Below, piece by piece: positions 1 to 32,772 of a stretch of 61,210 bases of DNA. Source of the stretch: Bacilli bacterium (GTDB lineage Bacteria; Bacillota_I; Bacilli_A; RFN20; CAG-826); the NCBI GenBank assembly GCA_045615665.1, contig JAZLFJ010000001.1:1-61210 (forward strand). The letters are read 5' to 3'. The translations under genes and the position numbers were made by a program. Positions within the stretch are counted from its first letter, which is position 1. The number at the start of each line of letters is the position of its first letter. Under the pieces are notes generated by a model that searched no databases, was not told the origin of the DNA, and saw only the letters and a list, made by a program, of their open reading frames with translations.

Positions 1-54
1 AGATTATATTATTTCTTTACTATAATATATTAAGGGTCAATCAAGACCCTAACT

Positions 55-131
55 GGCCGCATGGAGAAGTGGCTTAACTCATATCCCTCTCAAGGATACA
101 TTCATGGGTTCGAATCCCATTGCGGTCACCA
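55..131 (+). tRNA. tRNA-Glu (anticodon CTC)
   Basis: Acceptor GGCCGCA/TGCGGTC, anticodon arm TATCC-ctCTCaa-GGATA, T-arm GGGTTCGAATCCC, encoded CCA at 129-131. Confidence 0.97.
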
Positions 132-282
132 ACGATATTCGAACGAAAAACATCTATTGTGATCTTTATGTCTATGGCATAATGATTGACTTGAAGCCAT
201 ATTTCAAGAGATGGTGGGATCGTTATTATAAAAATAGAAAAAGAAAGTAAGGAACAAAGTTCCTAATTTCTTGATTTATCCA

Positions 283-315
283 TTGTAATATCACGGAAAA
301 GTGATATAATATAAT
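283..315 (+). promoter_or_regulatory. sigma70-type promoter of the TA operon with overlapping palindromic operator
   Basis: TTGTAA (283-288), TATAAT (305-310); inverted repeat ATATCAC-ggaaaa-GTGATAT (288-307). Confidence 0.6.
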
Positions 316-336
316 TGCAGGGGGGAAAAAACGAAT

Positions 337-591
337 ATGCCAATTATTTCAAGATTTTATGGAATTATAATTAAAATGTATTTTCAGCAAAGCGAGCATC
401 AGCCTCCACATATTCATGCAATTTATGGTGAATTTTCTGGTTCGATCATTATTTCTGATGGTTCTATTCTCGATGGTGATTTACCTAAAAAAGCAATATC
501 TTTGATAAGGGAATGGTTATCAATACATAGAGATGAAGTTCAAAAAATTTGGGATACGCAAGAATTTGTTGATATTCCAGGATTGGAGTAA
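337..591 (+). CDS. DUF4160-family putative toxin
   Basis: 84 aa, MPIISRFYGIIIKMY...EHQPPHIHAIYG signature; directly upstream of a DUF2442 gene. Confidence 0.88.
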   Translation: MPIISRFYGIIIKMYFQQSEHQPPHIHAIYGEFSGSIIISDGSILDGDLPKKAISLIREWLSIHRDEVQKIWDTQEFVDIPGLE

Positions 592-594
592 TTT

Positions 595-1032
595 ATGTTT
601 CACAAAGTAAAGTCAGTATTACCACAAAAAAATTATATTTTACTTGTTTTATTTAGTGAGGGTGTAAGTAAAACATATGATGTAAAACCATTATTTGCAA
701 AATGGAAAGTTTTTAATGATTTAAAAAAAGAGCATGTATTTGAAGAAGTAAAGGTAGACCAGGGAGGATATGGAATCTCATGGTCAGATGATATTGATTT
801 ATCATGCGATGAATTATTTTATAATGGAAAAGAAATTAAGACCCCATTTGATGGGTTAATCGCTTTTACTGAAGCGTGCCAACTTTGGAATTTGAATGAG
901 TCTACACTTAGAAAAGCTGTTTCGTATGGAAAATTAGTAGAGGGAATCGATGTTTGCAAATATGGGAAACAATGGGTTGTTTCCGTTAATGCAATGGAGA
1001 GAGAGTACGGTTCTTTGACAATAAAACAATAA
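595..1032 (+). CDS. DUF2442-family putative antitoxin with C-terminal helix-turn-helix
   Basis: N-terminal KVKSVLP..Y.LLV.FSEG...GISW..DIDL pattern; C-terminal EACQLWNLNESTLRKAV...YGKQWVV HTH; 3 bp after the toxin gene. Confidence 0.82.
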   Translation: MFHKVKSVLPQKNYILLVLFSEGVSKTYDVKPLFAKWKVFNDLKKEHVFEEVKVDQGGYGISWSDDIDLSCDELFYNGKEIKTPFDGLIAFTEACQLWNLNESTLRKAVSYGKLVEGIDVCKYGKQWVVSVNAMEREYGSLTIKQ

Positions 1033-1098
1033 ATTAAATACATTGTATTTACTTAAGTTCGTTTACATAACTTCTCGGTTCACCAACTTAAAAACATA

Positions 1099-2933
1099 GG
1101 GGCTGTTAAGAAATTAAAATCTTAACGCCCTTTTTCTTATACTAAGAAAGCCCGAAATATCGAGCTTAATGTACAATATTCTTGTCTAAGGAGGTATTGT
1201 ACATGCCTTATTTTATCACAGAAAAAGTTTTTCTGATGCCTTCCTTCGATATAAGTGAGAAGGAAAAACGAAAACTTGATACTTTTCTCGAAATATTAGA
1301 GAGATCAAACGCTTCTAAGATAATAGAAAAAGAGGTTACAAGAGACATAAATGTTGGAAGAAAATCTTATAATCCATATCGATTATTCGCTTCTATAATC
1401 TATGGCTTTTCTAAACATTCAGGAAGTGTGAGAAGCTTAGAAGAAAGCTTAGAATTTGATCTTCGTTTTATATATCTAATGGAACAAGAAAGGCCATCAT
1501 ATGTAACAATATCTAAATTTCTTAACAACGTAGTTGTTCCACATCAAAAAGAACTTTTTTCTAGTATAGTTTCCACTATCATCAAATATTTTGATATTTG
1601 TATTGATGATGTGTTTTTAGATGGAACAAAGTTTGAAGCAAACGCTAACAAGTATAAATTTGTTTGGAAGCCCACAATGTTTCACGAAAAGCTTAATGCA
1701 AATATTAAAAATTTATTAGTTAAATATTTCGATATTCCCACTTCAAAGAAAACATTTGTTTCTAAAGAGATAGGCGAATATATAACTCTTCTTTTAGGAA
1801 AAGCAAAAGAACAAGGTGTTGATGTCGATAATTTAAAAACTGGAAAGGGCCACAAAAAGGTTGAGATTGTTTCAGATATTAGAACATTAAATAACTACCT
1901 TAATAGATCTTTAGAATATGAAGAAAAAGAAGAAATATGTGGTGATAGGAATTCTTTTTATAAGACAGACAAAGATGCTACTGCAATGTGTTTAAAGGAA
2001 GATTATTACTCTGGATTAGGTAGCAACATGCATGCTGGATATAACATTCAAATTATTGTCAGCAAAGGCATAATTCTAGATTATTATGTTGGCCAGGAAA
2101 GAAATGATTTTTACGAATTTATCCCTTCTATTGATAGTTTCTACAAGAACTATGGGTTTTATCCAACTAGATTATGTGCTGATTCAGGCTATGGTTCCTT
2201 GCCTAATTATCGTTATTTAAAAGAACATAATATTGAGAACTATGTCAAATACAATATGTGGAGACAAGATGTATCTGGTGAAAACATAGACTATTATAAA
2301 TTCGTTAATGGGAAACTCATCTGCATTAATGGAAAAACCGCTATTGAGAAATCAGAATGTTATGGACGCCACCCAAAAGCTAAAAATAATAGATTTTATA
2401 TTATCGAAAACTGTCGCAGATGCAAATATAAGCAAGTTTGTTTTAGACCGATTAAGAATAAAAAATCTACATATAGAGTTTTTGAAACAAACGAAGAAAT
2501 GTATTTATACAAAGAAGAAGCTAGGCAAAATCTGCTTTCAATAAAAGGAATAGAAATGAGAGTTAACAGAAGCTCTCAAGTTGAAGGTGCTTTTGGAGTC
2601 ATTAAGCAGGATATGAATTATGAAAGAATCAGAAGAAGAGGGTTAGAAAAAGTATCCGCAGAAATAATGCTTGTATGTTTGGGATATGTAATTAGAAAAA
2701 TATTCGGCTTAATTGATGGTACTGGAAGCATTGAATATTGGAAAGCTCCTGAAGGATTAGAACCAGAGAAAATACCATCGATAAATATTGAAAAAATTTT
2801 GAATAAAAAGCCAAGAAAAGGTAAAAATGAAACGCTAAGAAAATCATATAAAAGAGCAAATAAATAATTTCTTAACAACACAGTTGTTTACCAAAAGAAA
2901 AGGGCGTTAAGATTTTAATTTCTTAACAGCCCC
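1099..2933 (+). mobile_element. IS1182-family insertion sequence, apparently intact
   Basis: Perfect 36-bp terminal inverted repeats GGGGCTGTTAAGAAATTAAAATCTTAACGCCCTTTT (1099-1134 / 2898-2933) flank a single DDE transposase. Confidence 0.92.
1203..2867 (+). CDS. IS1182-family DDE transposase
   Basis: GRKSYNP, LDGTKFEANANKY, ADSGY and R...VEGAFGVIKQ motifs, Cys-rich insertion; ATG at 1203 follows GGAGG (ORF track starts at TTG 1182). Confidence 0.93.
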   Translation: MPYFITEKVFLMPSFDISEKEKRKLDTFLEILERSNASKIIEKEVTRDINVGRKSYNPYRLFASIIYGFSKHSGSVRSLEESLEFDLRFIYLMEQERPSYVTISKFLNNVVVPHQKELFSSIVSTIIKYFDICIDDVFLDGTKFEANANKYKFVWKPTMFHEKLNANIKNLLVKYFDIPTSKKTFVSKEIGEYITLLLGKAKEQGVDVDNLKTGKGHKKVEIVSDIRTLNNYLNRSLEYEEKEEICGDRNSFYKTDKDATAMCLKEDYYSGLGSNMHAGYNIQIIVSKGIILDYYVGQERNDFYEFIPSIDSFYKNYGFYPTRLCADSGYGSLPNYRYLKEHNIENYVKYNMWRQDVSGENIDYYKFVNGKLICINGKTAIEKSECYGRHPKAKNNRFYIIENCRRCKYKQVCFRPIKNKKSTYRVFETNEEMYLYKEEARQNLLSIKGIEMRVNRSSQVEGAFGVIKQDMNYERIRRRGLEKVSAEIMLVCLGYVIRKIFGLIDGTGSIEYWKAPEGLEPEKIPSINIEKILNKKPRKGKNETLRKSYKRANK

Positions 2934-4089
2934 TTTTTATGTAGATTACTTCAATGTTATCTAATGCCTCTTTGATCAGGGATTCGTAATCGAATTTACT
3001 CTCGTATTCTTTCGCCTTTTCTAAAGAAGGTTTTGTCTTTGGATTCTTGGGTGCAAATATCGTGCAGCAATCTTCGAATGGCCTAATCGATATTTCATAT
3101 GTATCAATCTTTCTAGCGAGATTAATGATATCGATTTTGTCATAAGTAACGAGTGGTCTAAGAATAGGAACATTTGTAACTTCATTTATAACATTCATTG
3201 ATTCAAGAGTTTGAGAAGCAACTTGGCCAACCGATTCTCCTGTTGAACAGGCCACGCAGTTTCTTCGCTTAGAGAGCTCACTAGCGAGTCTAAACATCAT
3301 TCTACGCATAATTGTGATCGCATATGATTCATCGCTTACTTCGTAGATCTTTTCTTGGATTTTGGTGAATGGCACGACATTTAATCTTATTGATTCTTGA
3401 TAAACATTAAGTTTTGAGAGCAAATCTTTTAATTTTTCAATAACGCCGATATTCGTATATGGAGGAGAAGCGAAATGAATGCATTCGATTCTTAAGCCTC
3501 TTTTCATTAATAAATAAGCTGCCACAGGCGAATCTATTCCTCCAGAGAGCATATGCATAACCTTTCCGCCTACTCCAAGAGGATAACCACCCGCACCTTT
3601 AAATGTTTTAGTGAATATATAACAGCCATCATCTCTAATTTCAATTGAAAGGAGGATGTCAGGATTATGCACATCAACCTTTAAATTGGTGTTTCTTAAT
3701 ATTTCCGCTGCAACCTCTCGATTAATTTGATCGGAGATGATTGGATATTTTTTATTAGCTCTTTTCGAATGGACTTTGAAAGTCTTTCCTTCTTCGAGTT
3801 TAATTAACTCTAAAGAAACCTTTTTAATATTAGATATTTCTTCGTCGGTTTTGAGCACTAAAGAAAGAGCTTGAATTCCAGAAATTCCCTGCAAAATTCC
3901 GATAATTTCATCAGGATTGTTATCGTTAAGTTTAACGTAAATATGGTCAAATCTCACAATGTATTCGAGGTTAGAGTAATCGCTTAAAGCGTTTTTAATA
4001 TTCCTCGCTAAAATGCGAATAAATTCTTTTTTATTTTTACCTTTGGTAGACAATTCACCAAAACGTACCATTATGTGATCGTAGTTCAT
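2923..4089 (-). CDS. thiI: tRNA 4-thiouridine(8) synthase ThiI
   Basis: RFGELSTKGKN, THUMP domain, SGGIDS PP-loop, GQVASQT, EDCC. Confidence 0.96.
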   Translation of the reverse strand: MNYDHIMVRFGELSTKGKNKKEFIRILARNIKNALSDYSNLEYIVRFDHIYVKLNDNNPDEIIGILQGISGIQALSLVLKTDEEISNIKKVSLELIKLEEGKTFKVHSKRANKKYPIISDQINREVAAEILRNTNLKVDVHNPDILLSIEIRDDGCYIFTKTFKGAGGYPLGVGGKVMHMLSGGIDSPVAAYLLMKRGLRIECIHFASPPYTNIGVIEKLKDLLSKLNVYQESIRLNVVPFTKIQEKIYEVSDESYAITIMRRMMFRLASELSKRRNCVACSTGESVGQVASQTLESMNVINEVTNVPILRPLVTYDKIDIINLARKIDTYEISIRPFEDCCTIFAPKNPKTKPSLEKAKEYESKFDYESLIKEALDNIEVIYIKRGC

Positions 4090-6921: not shown

Positions 6922-7117
6922 GCAATCTTTTCCTTTACTTTGCTAATTTTATCACATAATAATCTTGTTTTATAGAAAAACAAATAGATTTTTTTATCGC
7001 TTTTTAACAAAATTCAATATCCCTAAATATTTAGGGATGAAGGTGATATTCATCCGCACGATTTTGTAAGAAAATGTCGCTGCTCGAATATCATAAATTC
7101 GATTTGAAAAATCTTTG

Positions 7118-7145
7118 TTGACAAAAAAATCACTATATTTATAAT
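7118..7145 (+). promoter_or_regulatory. sigma70 promoter of rpsD
   Basis: TTGACA-16 bp-TATAAT. Confidence 0.85.
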
Positions 7146-7151
7146 ATCTTT

Positions 7152-7290
7152 TGCATTGTTGCAGCATGTAAATACTGCTTGTCCGATGTCCTAACAACCG
7201 TGGAATAGTAGCCAAAGCTCATAGGTGAAATTCAATTTAGTGCACATCCGAAGTAAGGAATTTACACCTCTTGCTAAATAATGCATTTAG
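7152..7290 (+). ncRNA. Structured rpsD 5' leader (probable S4 autoregulatory leader)
   Basis: Nested pairings TGCATTGTT/AATAATGCA, AGCA/TGCT and TGTAAAT/ATTTACA between promoter and SD; contains GTAA; S4 leaders are known in Bacilli. Confidence 0.65.
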
Positions 7291-30576: not shown

Positions 30577-32772
30577 CTAGAAGTCATATGGATCGACATT
30601 AACTTTAATATTTATTTGTGATTTGTTCTTAAGTGAATTTATTACTTCACCAAGATAGGCGTTAATTTTATCATAGTTTTTATATTTTATTAATATAATT
30701 CGGTGATAATTGTTATTCTCATAGGCAATATAAGGTTCAACTGGCCCTAAAACTGATACATTTTCAAAACCTTTGGAATCGATATCACGGCAAATCTTAG
30801 AAATAATATCAACAACCATATCTTCATTTTTGCCAATGATTTCGATGCTTGTTAAATAAGTATATGGGGGATATTGTGAAACTTTTCTCACCGACATTTC
30901 TTTAAGGAAAAATGCTTCATAATCCTGCTTGCTCGCCAAACGGATGGCGTAATGATAAGGATTAAAGGTTTGAATTATTGCATGGCCAACTTTATCCGCT
31001 CGTCCACTTCGGCCGACTGCCTGAGTGATTAGTTGAAACGCTCTTTCGGTCGAGCGGAAAGAAGGCAGTGATAAACCAATATCAGCAAGAACCACACCCA
31101 CTAGAGTAACATTTGGAAAATCATGACCCTTAGCAATCATTTGGGTCCCGACTAAAATATCTGCTTCTTGGTTAGCAAAGGCTTCAATTGTTTTAGCAAT
31201 ATTGTTTCTTACTTCTCCAACATCACTATCGAGTCTTAATACTTTAGCTTCTGGGAATAGCTTCTTAACTTCATCAACTATTCTTTCTGTTCCAAACCCT
31301 GACCTAGATAAATATTTAGAGCCACATTCTGGACAAACTTCAGCATTTAATTCGACGTGACCGCAATGATGGCACTTAAGCATATTGTCTTCACGATGAT
31401 AAGTTAAAGCAATACCACAGTTTGGACATTTGATAATATGCCCACAGCTACGACAAGTAATATAACCTGAATGACCTCTTCTATTTATTAATAGAATAGC
31501 TTGTTCCTTTCTTTCTAATACACCTTTTAATTGATCAATTAGATATTTTGAAAACATCGAAGATTCTCGGCTAAAAGAATATGCTTTTGACATATCGATT
31601 ATCGAGGTCTTTGGTAGTTCTTGTTTGTTAATTCGATTTGGTAAAGAAGCAAAATGATAAACACCTTTACACGCTCTTGCTTTTGTCTCTAATGATGGGG
31701 TCGCACTGCCAAGAATAACTTTAGAATTAAAGTGAGCGGCTCTCATAATCGCAACATCGCGAGCATGATAAAACGGAAGTGAATCTTGTTTGTAAGATTC
31801 CGTATGTTCTTCATCAAGAATGATTAAACCGATATTGTCTAATGGAGCAAATATTGCACTTCTAGCGCCAACGACAACGTGACAATCGCCTCTTGAGATA
31901 CGACGATATTCATCATATTTCTCAGCGGGCGTTAATTCACTATGAAGAATGGCGACATCTCCCGAAAATCTTCTTTGGAAATATTCAACCATTACTGGAG
32001 TCAAAGATATTTCAGGTACTAACATTAAAACGTTTCGACCCTGGGATAATATTTTCTCTGAGATAGTCAAATAAACTTCTGTCTTTCCTGAACCGGTAAC
32101 ACCTTGTAATAAAGTGACAGTTTTATCGGTTTTTAAAATAGACTCCACCGCTTGTTTTTGTTCATTGGTCAATTCTTTTTTATGTTCTTTTTTATATTCT
32201 GGAATCTCTAATCTAATCTTTTCTTCTTTTTCAAAATCAATTCGTTTCTTTTCATAGAGTTTTTGAACGATTGAAGGAGATTTGCAGTCTTTTTTGAGAA
32301 TTCGACCATTCGTTTTTAGTAGTCTAACCAGTTCAATTTGTTTAGGTGTTAAATCCTCTTCATCATCATCAATTAATTTGACATATGTGTCATATGCAAC
32401 CTTTGGTCCTCTAAGAGATGAAGAGGCTGGTTTCAAAGATGATGGTAGCATCGTCTGGAGGACACTAATTAAAGGGGCTAAATAATAATTTGATACCTCT
32501 TGAGATAGTTTAATAAGTTCATCATTTAGAAGTGGCTTTTCATCAAGAACATCTTTTATTTCTCCGATTTGAAAACCCATTTCCTCTTCGATTTGTTCTT
32601 TGCTTTTATCACTATCCTTAACATTTATTACATATGCAATGGTATTTTTGTGCGCAAAACTAACCAAAACACGATAACCAACACCAATCTGTTTATCACC
32701 TTTATAAATATAAGAAAAAGGGCGATTGAGACTATTGGCTTTTCTTTCAATTAAAACCTCAAGCAGCTTCAT
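30577..32772 (-). CDS. priA: Primosomal protein N' PriA
   Basis: GVTGSGKTEVY, DEEH, SATPS, four CxxC pairs, GTQMIAKGHDF. Confidence 0.98.
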   Translation of the reverse strand: MKLLEVLIERKANSLNRPFSYIYKGDKQIGVGYRVLVSFAHKNTIAYVINVKDSDKSKEQIEEEMGFQIGEIKDVLDEKPLLNDELIKLSQEVSNYYLAPLISVLQTMLPSSLKPASSSLRGPKVAYDTYVKLIDDDEEDLTPKQIELVRLLKTNGRILKKDCKSPSIVQKLYEKKRIDFEKEEKIRLEIPEYKKEHKKELTNEQKQAVESILKTDKTVTLLQGVTGSGKTEVYLTISEKILSQGRNVLMLVPEISLTPVMVEYFQRRFSGDVAILHSELTPAEKYDEYRRISRGDCHVVVGARSAIFAPLDNIGLIILDEEHTESYKQDSLPFYHARDVAIMRAAHFNSKVILGSATPSLETKARACKGVYHFASLPNRINKQELPKTSIIDMSKAYSFSRESSMFSKYLIDQLKGVLERKEQAILLINRRGHSGYITCRSCGHIIKCPNCGIALTYHREDNMLKCHHCGHVELNAEVCPECGSKYLSRSGFGTERIVDEVKKLFPEAKVLRLDSDVGEVRNNIAKTIEAFANQEADILVGTQMIAKGHDFPNVTLVGVVLADIGLSLPSFRSTERAFQLITQAVGRSGRADKVGHAIIQTFNPYHYAIRLASKQDYEAFFLKEMSVRKVSQYPPYTYLTSIEIIGKNEDMVVDIISKICRDIDSKGFENVSVLGPVEPYIAYENNNYHRIILIKYKNYDKINAYLGEVINSLKNKSQINIKVNVDPYDF

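Follow-up and report, generated by a model that had tools for sequence, protein, structure and literature searches.

How did a toxin-antitoxin (TA) operon come to stand, within less than 1 kb of DNA, between a tRNA-Glu(CTC) gene and a second, imperfect version of that gene's own 3' end? The question is raised by the left edge of JAZLFJ010000001.1 1-61,210, a stretch of 61,210 nt that is called here the window; it belongs to the genome G000, whose contigs are designated by C-numbers. In the segment of interest (132-1085), no recombinase or transfer gene is present: both the gene calls and the Pfam results for 132-1085 agree with the preliminary description of this locus, in which the islet was said to carry the TA pair only. 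The right attachment site (attR) is clear, and the left one (attL) is degenerate. Quite probably, the segment is a miniature derivative, lacking the large serine recombinase (LSR) gene, of elements that target tRNA or tmRNA genes by means of an LSR related to the integrase of Roseburia phage Shimadzu.

According to this explanation, the LSR of an intact element would insert it at the 3' end of a tRNA or tmRNA gene. The P arm, lying within the last codons of the LSR gene, would mimic the T-loop and the CCA end of the tRNA with 5 extra bases between them, and recombination inside or beside the hexamer TCACCA would then generate (i) attL, composed of the intact tRNA and the P' arm; and (ii) attR, composed of the P arm and the old flank. 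The order seen in the window would correspond to tRNA-Glu(CTC), P'-like remnant, cargo, P arm, and the start of a native-type flank. The cargo would have shrunk to one DhiTA-type TA operon and the LSR gene would have disappeared; such a state may have arisen because the LSR was lost or because the TA pair was captured between two half-sites. The TA pair may have aided the persistence of the islet, which would be stranded unless a cognate LSR arrives. A later insertion of an insertion sequence (IS), or a rearrangement, would have joined the right flank to the end of thiI.

The half-site at the right end of the islet

The T-loop of the tRNA-Glu(CTC) gene, GTTCGAAT, occupies 108-115 and its core TCACCA 126-131. 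In the downstream copy, GTTCG is found at 1057-1061 and GGTTCACCA at 1077-1085, while an inverted copy of the T-loop, ATTCGAAC, lies at 137-144, outside the CCA end of the tRNA; all of these strings stand where they had been placed initially. Measured between their first bases, GTTCG and CACCA are 19 nt apart in the tRNA but 24 nt apart in the copy, and the core TCACCAAC is common to 126-133 and 1080-1087. When the two are aligned by their CCA ends, the copy shows a G-to-T difference with respect to the tRNA (GGGTCACCA versus GGTTCACCA). The idea that the copy is a tRNA end with one inserted T was dropped, since this alignment gives a substitution.

A strict form of the P-arm pattern, GTTCG-N19-C[ACG][CT][CT]A, has 20 matches in G000 (2.37 Mb, both strands), and around 0.008 matches are expected in the 1 kb after the window tRNA. 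The same strict motif was found in the 3' region of 11 out of 30 loci of the LSR family defined below, i.e., 11 matches in 8,559 nt of LSR 3' ends versus 5 in 224,885 nt of control sequence. When spacings of 8 to 30 were scanned in those 3' ends, N19 alone was enriched, with 11 matches versus 0-1 at the other spacings. Window 1057-1085 conforms to this strict, LSR-linked pattern. A longer form, GT[TG]CG-N13-TCGGTTCACCA, occurs exactly at only four other places in 401 genomes of the order: two of them lie 1-1.7 kb after another tRNA-Glu(CTC) gene and one lies inside a serine-recombinase gene. In the same genomes, several matches to GTKCG-N13-TCGGTTCACCA are located in the 3' end of LSR genes, on the same strand, even though the total for this pattern did not exceed that of its control. 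Allowing one mismatch in the 29-nt pattern gave about as many matches as the control in the 401 genomes, and the exact and LSR-linked matches were the ones used. As for the 11-mer TCGGTTCACCA alone, it was present in 99 of 301 genomes, about as frequently as its reversed control, and the 30 loci returned for it were all in coding sequence, which is uninformative. The enrichment of GTTCG-N19-C.CCA in LSR 3' ends, with its peak at N19, bears out the initial claim that the degenerate copy of the tRNA end is a serine-recombinase site; as judged by sequence comparison, the pseudo tRNA 3' end at 1057-1085 is supported as a serine-recombinase attachment half-site.

That the tRNA-like strings are mere chance matches in AT-rich intergenic DNA is scarcely credible. 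This reading can appeal to the palindromic nature of TTCGAA and to the 11-mer being as common as its reversed control, but the low expected counts, the reappearance of the pattern behind two other tRNA-Glu(CTC) genes, its connection with LSRs and the N19 peak all speak against it. For the P arm, chance is refuted. ATTCGAAC at 137-144 may be a chance match: TTCGAA is its own reverse complement, and the inverted T-loop copy is less secure. Among the 45 tRNA/tmRNA genes of G000, CGAAC within 30 nt after the CCA was found once, namely at the window tRNA, and the motif CCA-N5-7-TTCGAAC, which was to be looked for after other tRNAs, follows none of them in G000.

It is also very improbable that the repeats are the remnants of a classical tyrosine-integrase island in the tRNA gene. 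The 3' ends of tRNA genes are the usual targets of tyrosine integrases, as stated in PMC5704250, and the common block TCACCA(A), of 6-8 bp, would fit a tyrosine-recombinase overlap region. Nevertheless, the homologous P arms lie inside LSR genes and not beside tyrosine integrases; the three tyrosine recombinases (PF00589) of the genome are on other contigs; and the identity between repeat and tRNA is short and has the 5-bp offset typical of LSR sites.

Complete elements in relatives and the geometry of their sites

Family membership was set at E <= 1e-70 in a search with one motif-bearing LSR. Of 301 genomes from the order, 38 have a family LSR by this threshold; within the genus it is one out of 15, G024. 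The domains of these LSRs are Resolvase, Recombinase and Zn_ribbon_recom. In G000 itself no family LSR was found, its own four LSRs being only 21-28% identical. The LSR family thus exists in the lineage and is missing from the genome of the window.

Six complete elements were recognized in relatives (Table 1), in which a same-strand tRNA or tmRNA gene marks attL and the LSR is the last gene, 4-9 kb on. The window has the same layout of same-strand tRNA, core and P arm. For four of these six elements, a pattern search recovered the P arm where the LSR gene ends. In G202, the P and P' arms are contiguous and the LSR frame continues into a P'-type tail, which is ~75% identical to the sequence after tRNA-Ala in G026; G202 has the unintegrated attP arrangement. 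In all five elements tested, the P' flank that follows the tRNA gene stays open for 20-43 codons in the LSR phase and, in consequence, the recombinase C-termini would differ between the integrated and the excised forms. In the genus member G024, the family LSR ends in ..GGCTCACCA followed by a native-type flank, and the flank of its tRNA-Glu(CTC) gene is open in the LSR phase and resembles that of the window.

At two loci, L265 (G220) and L205 (G410:C19:1181-1300), a P'-like arm comes right after a P arm, and the two constitute an attP-like chromosomal junction. This direct joining of both arms in G410 and G220 points to tandem accretion at an occupied tRNA/tmRNA site. A candidate in G094:C41, which has an LSR but lacks a tRNA and in which the site occurs twice in direct orientation at a distance of 11.8 kb, was kept out of the counts because its orientation is uncertain.

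If the A of CCA is counted as position 0, GTTCG is at -23 in the tRNA and at -28 in the P arm, and (C/T)GAAC is found at +14 or +15 in the attL flanks of all six complete elements. An intact attP of ~47 bp has the form GTTCG-N19-C.CCA-N13/14-CGAAC, with inverted edges and a centre near -5, and the tRNA half-site is 5 bp shorter. This 5-bp offset between attP and attB, initially noticed between the copy and the tRNA of the window, recurs in every case examined. It matches the serine-integrase site model reportedly put forward by Rutherford, Van Duyne and colleagues in 2013, where the outer zinc-ribbon recognition motif takes the position in which the conserved tRNA T-loop stands here. Since the tRNA and the P arm have TCACCA(A), 6-8 bp, in common, the tRNA would be restored after insertion.

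Three further loci of G000 combine serine recombinases with tRNA genes. Contig C48 (6545-6715 and 28833-32400) bears a ~25.7-kb element whose right end carries two large serine recombinases in tandem. Direct repeats of ~82 nt (C48:6634-6715 and 32319-32400; ~90% identical), which begin at the CA of the CCA end of tRNA-Ser(GGA), delimit this element. On C26 (1082-7152), a tyrosine recombinase, an XRE regulator and two tandem large serine recombinases adjoin the 3' end of an antisense tRNA-Arg(TCT) gene (7076-7152), and the contig begins inside the element. Finally, C25 (22174-23863) has a 211-aa resolvase-type serine recombinase ~1 kb from the 3' end of tRNA-Glu(TTC), and a T-loop-like GTTCGAATC is found ~100 nt after that tRNA.

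Table 1. Features at the left edge of the window, and targets of the complete elements of relatives
Feature	Coordinates	Strand	Details
tRNA-Glu(CTC)	55..131	+	ARAGORN; second, divergent gene copy; attB-type left arm
Candidate P' arm remnant	132..250	+	ATTCGAAC at 137-144; ATCTAT at 154-159; open frame to TAA at 248-250
Short hairpin GGAAC-AAA-GTTCC	251..263	+	Between P' remnant and cassette promoter; function presumed
Cassette promoter and operator-like inverted repeat	283..310	+	TTGTAA (-35), ATATCAC-N6-GTGATAT, TATAAT (-10)
ORF1, 84 aa, DUF4160, DhiT-like putative toxin	337..591	+	Pfam PF13711, E 2.5e-19
ORF2, 145 aa, DUF2442 and C-terminal HTH_59, DhiA-like putative antitoxin/autoregulator	595..1032	+	PF10387, E 5.1e-11; PF20038, E 1e-7
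P arm GTTCGTTTACATAACTTCTCGGTTCACCA (attP-type left half-site), attR junction	1057..1085	+	Core TCACCA at 1080-1085
Host flank remnant (B') ACTTAAAAACAT	1086..1097	+	Begins with native-type flank
Insertion sequence, outside the islet	1098..2934	+	37-nt inverted ends, 1098-1134 / 2898-2934
thiI	2923..4089	-	Last codons replaced by IS end: ..IKRGC (stop) versus ..IKKED (stop) in closest relative
Complete element G246			Target tRNA-Arg(TCT)
Complete element G241			Target tRNA-Arg(TCT)
Complete element G026			Target tRNA-Ala(TGC)
Complete element G194			Target tRNA-Ala(CGC)
Complete element G220			Target tmRNA
Complete element G230			Target tmRNA

The tRNA-Glu(CTC) locus in relatives and in other samples

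The canonical tRNA-Glu(CTC) gene is found directly after gltX; in G000, this copy is on C11 (9935-11705), and the same order was observed in most of the genus genomes inspected. The window tRNA is 92% identical to the canonical copy and has compensatory changes in the acceptor stem. On C11, GGTTCACCA occurs after GT[TG]CG at the 24-nt distance, 1.66 kb after the canonical tRNA and behind an AAA_14/DUF4143 ATPase gene. In L085 (= G073, a related metagenome-assembled genome, MAG), the P arm is located ~1.0 kb after tRNA-Glu(CTC), behind small winged helix-turn-helix (wHTH) and PRiA4_ORF3-like genes. Neither of these two islets with homologous P arms contains an LSR. The closest relative, G014, has neither the second tRNA and islet of the window nor C11:7074-9933, and in G017 and G012 the tRNA, a terminator and pyrG follow one another in order. 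Taken together, these five cases indicate that the tRNA-Glu(CTC) site is variable and receives differing cargo before the same kind of P arm, just as had been predicted for relatives. Regarding the flank, the relatives G014 and G017 have ACTTAAAA as the native sequence behind their canonical tRNA-Glu(CTC), and CACCAACTTAAAAA is found once in G000. After the P arm of C11, an HNH-endonuclease-like gene (G000:C11:7158-8270) lies between two similar terminator hairpins (GATACAA..GTCCTTTTTATTTTT), and this pair looks as if the tRNA flank had been duplicated around the HNH gene.

Other samples were available as Logan contigs of four runs, and the runs that hold the islet come from one study. In X1, the islet has 16 other letters and 4 gaps relative to the window; a 9.4-kb contig spans window 96-1085 and then diverges, and the neighbouring tRNA carries the acceptor 3' strand of the canonical gene. 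In X3, a contig extends to window 1086. In X2, position 1085 is followed by CTTAGTTAAATAGGATTGATAC.., the native flank type that also follows the P arm of C11 (TTAAATAGGATTGATACAA); the match of this contig begins at 129, maybe due to alignment clipping inside the tRNA, and no exact left breakpoint is claimed. Since the contigs of three other runs leave the window match at 1085/1086, a genuine breakpoint exists at the core on the right side. The islet thus occurs beside another tRNA-Glu variant and another flank in other samples, and in the other runs the IS is not joined to it. Metagenome contigs were also scanned with exact patterns, one for the junction between tRNA and flank and one for the 5' half of the tRNA, with 0 matches in both cases.

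Several points weigh against the derivation of the islet from tRNA-targeting LSR elements: (i) the tRNA gene of the window is a divergent second version with 54 nt of contig before it, and window 1-61 matched nothing in 40 relatives or in the contigs of the four runs; (ii) no excision product, circle junction or empty site for this tRNA copy was seen in those contigs, which are unable to show circle junctions; (iii) the native-type flank left behind the P arm measures only 9 nt, and the attR call leans in part on the other samples; (iv) in the window, CGAAC is at +9..13 after CCA and not at +14/15, i.e., 5-6 nt nearer than in the complete elements; and (v) the identity of 132-250 as a P' arm is weak, with p = 0.23 for the similarity between the window and L085. 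Actually, in Smith-Waterman comparisons with shuffles of the 150 nt after the tRNAs, the window flank had no significant similarity to the flanks of L085 or C11 and, in consequence, 132-250 is retained as a candidate P' arm.

Other traits of this left side are mixed. The peptide NIYCDLYVYG encoded in 132-250 resembles the tails CYIDYGVY (G246) and NIYVDSNSF (G024), but in another phase: the open frame of the window is in a phase other than that of TCA-CCA, and an in-frame stop is present in the window P arm in the G246 phase (phase 2). In G024, CGAAT is at +8. With CGAAC at +9..13, the left site of the window is attB-like in geometry on both sides; this offset may be characteristic of a subfamily, result from a small deletion or mark an attB-like site. 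The proposal that the joined ends of the window form a near-symmetric attP fails, as the arms measure 23 and 18 nt about T126 versus 23/23-24 in intact sites. Of the broader proposal that both ends are the attL and attR of a ~0.95-kb non-autonomous islet, the attR site and its LSR link were upheld, and the P' side of attL, with its CGAAC at +9..13, is degenerate; as regards the sites and the islet, the proposal proves largely right.

If the islet descends from LSR elements, it could still be a working non-autonomous cassette, which Shimadzu-type LSRs from elsewhere insert and excise in trans at tRNA ends, together with its sister cassettes. Under this view, genes would be captured at the tRNA end as they are in staphylococcal cassette chromosome (SCC) and pseudo-SCC elements or, loosely, in an integron. 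We consider this doubtful. Three LSR-less islets with differing cargo keep the P arm, the cargo gene ending 13-100 nt before it; the window P arm still conforms to the strict consensus; in other samples, this TA islet has different tRNA variants and flanks for neighbours; and the P arms joined to P'-like arms in G410 and G220 would represent repeated insertion at occupied sites. However, G000 has no cognate LSR; the P' arm is degenerate, with its tail motif outside the TCA-CCA phase and an in-frame stop in the P arm (G246 phase); and exchange of the islet is equally possible by homologous recombination of the flanks.

This last process is central to another account, to which we give somewhat less than an even chance: the islet would be a fixed scar, and its presence, absence and differing neighbours among strains would be due to homologous recombination within the conserved flanks together with IS-mediated rearrangement, with no site-specific recombination after its decay. 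In line with it, the IS adjoins the right end and its flanks are non-contiguous in the closest relative; this IS recurs at six other contig ends, preceded each time by an A-rich flank; an IS-end remnant lies beside the L085 cassette; and G000 and G014 have 96.5% identity across the gltX-tRNA flank. On the other hand, a fixed scar leaves unexplained the good match of the P arm to the LSR consensus and the retention of the half-site in three islets. In any case, it concerns recent history and is compatible with the derivation from LSR elements as far as origin is concerned.

The IS itself encodes a 561-aa DDE transposase (1182-2867) with the domains DDE_Tnp_1_6, DDE_Tnp_1 and DUF772, and presumably belongs to the IS1182 family. 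In G014, whose ThiI is 98% identical, neither IS flank continues as in the window; as these flanks are not contiguous there, the joint at 1097/1098 is attributed to an IS-linked rearrangement.

Known systems and the toxin-antitoxin cargo

The best named phage match of the G026 LSR is the integrase of Roseburia phage Shimadzu (39.9% identity over 88%, E 9e-88). For this phage, the integration site is reported to lie inside the integrase gene, the last ~22 residues of which differ between the prophage and the free phage, and one extra prophage copy is reported to be inserted in a tRNA (Cornuault et al., 10.1101/575076). The LSR family and the split integrase C-terminus are alike in Shimadzu and in the elements of the relatives. 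In contrast, the window islet has no integrase, and the T-loop/CCA mimic, the 5-bp offset and the integrase-less derivatives are not described in the available portion of 10.1101/575076. At its 3' end, the Shimadzu integrase gene has an antisense tRNA-like string, an arrangement also present in 4 of 30 LSR loci, where the LSR 3' end adjoins the 3' end of an antisense tRNA. The single serine integrases with which streptococcal integrative and conjugative elements (ICEs) target rumA are described as having attR within the integrase gene and a C-terminus that changes on excision (Ambroset et al. 2016, PMC4701971); but in those ICEs the protein gene rumA is altered, whereas here the tRNA is restored intact. 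Cis-mobilizable elements (CIMEs) have lost the integration and transfer genes, have kept attL and attR, and are often in tandem (accretion) with newer elements at a common target (Guedon et al. 2017, PMC5704250). The islet is comparable to them as a recombinase-less element at a tRNA target. CIMEs, however, derive from ICEs or integrative and mobilizable elements, and in the tables of PMC5704250 tRNA targets go with tyrosine integrases. The sites of the window, instead, are of LSR type, and the element is under 1 kb and carries a TA pair only.

In staphylococci, pseudo-SCC elements and composite SCC islands at rlmH include ccr-less cassettes with short recombinase sites, which are stacked and can be moved by CcrAB in trans. 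The islet is similar to pseudo-SCC elements, by description only, in being a cassette without a serine recombinase of its own, but the target of the latter is the rlmH 3' end and not a tRNA, and Ccr belongs to a different LSR group. Integron cassettes are likewise small; they are poor in promoters or consist of a single operon, stack up at one site and often carry TA pairs. Unlike them, the cassette studied here has its own promoter and LSR-type sites, with no IntI, attI or attC hairpin. The integron-like system evoked in the preliminary description was not sustained, as its sole basis is small arrays in relatives and no integron feature is present.

Shimadzu-type tRNA-targeting elements are a little-described family, of which the window islet is probably a small relic or hitch-hiker. 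A literature search returned no account of serine integrases copying the tRNA T-loop, and the word "tRNA" is absent from the main text of Durrant et al. 2022. Serine recombinases, usually tied to protein-gene targets, here use tRNA/tmRNA ends and restore the tRNA; this provides a natural, many-fold replicated case of the 5-bp offset between the attP and attB half-sites of serine integrases, testable on defined sites. It also suggests a route by which ~1-Mb gut bacteria gain or keep small modules (toxin-antitoxin, ATPase, restriction-modification) at tRNA ends, and a recombinase with a target in nearly every genome may be of interest to genome engineers. Only tentatively can it be proposed that Shimadzu-type LSRs employ the T-loop and CCA of tRNAs and tmRNA as a general landing pad, where recombinase-less mini-cassettes, each with both half-sites retained, are moved and stacked in trans. 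The cargo observed to date comprises the DhiTA pair, an AAA ATPase, wHTH plus PRiA4, and RhuM-like genes. If true, (i) this would be a serine-recombinase, tRNA-anchored counterpart of SCC/integron gene capture in small-genome gut Bacilli; and (ii) the last 20-43 codons of the LSR, split across the site, could sense the integrated versus the excised state. By itself, the window offers a modest result, i.e., a stranded relic beside an IS.

Regarding the cargo, a DUF4160 gene is followed by a DUF2442 gene (337-1032) with a 3-nt gap and a common promoter, and the Pfam matches are above cut-off. In the literature, DUF4160/DUF2442 is listed as the dhiTA type II TA system of Dickeya dadantii (PMC8198452, table 1), is treated as a toxin/partner pair (PMC12065111), and is borne by a Thermus plasmid (PMC12724237). 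The window pair resembles DhiTA in having the two Pfam families in that order, and presents an operator-like palindrome over its promoter. It differs in the extra C-terminal HTH_59 of ORF2, and the toxin and antitoxin roles are putative here. The 28-nt promoter layout was recovered with one regular expression in 4 of 7 cassette copies (window, L084, L085 and L086), near-identical ATATCACGGAA.AGTGATA strings were read in the copies of G019 and L091, and the homology among copies begins at this promoter (283-310).

ORF2 is the sole gene preceding the P arm in the window, where no LSR gene reads into it, for which reason the islet is classed as a derivative and not as an element. No clean P arm was found after ORF2 in the five other cassette copies (G019, L084, L085, L086 and C47) and, therefore, the P arm belongs to the end of the element and not to the TA cassette. 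The four closest ORF2 loci (81-91% identity) are titled Bacilli bacterium MAGs. When 80 loci were compared, a same-strand tRNA was located 0.4-1.5 kb upstream of ORF2 in 4 of these 4 versus 2 of the 76 others. Judging from these sequences, the TA pair is cargo that tends to stay at tRNA ends, and not the mobile unit itself.

ORF2 relatives of 62-70% identity are spread over many phyla. They were seen at loci L087-L163, in records titled Treponema, Oxalobacter, Victivallales, Bacteroidaceae, Anaerolineaceae, Coriobacteriales and many Clostridia; these records are mostly from gut or rumen, a sign of broad horizontal spread of the TA pair. In L010 (G019:C2, 1053-2330), a 72%-identical TA cassette lies between the tmRNA gene, with its own terminator, and rlmH. 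The tmRNA and rlmH genes directly adjoin in 5 genus members, and lipoprotein or other genes stand there in other genomes, so this site is a second variable hotspot. G000 has a second DUF4160/DUF2442 pair (C47:6249-7067), whose second protein has an HTH_3-type C-terminal domain, with no tRNA within the 1.4-1.5 kb scanned on either side. Lastly, in L085, outside the P arm of its first islet, ~48-nt direct repeats of the tRNA downstream flank and terminator (2576-2625 and 3503-3550) enclose the TA cassette together with a remnant of the inverted end of the window IS.

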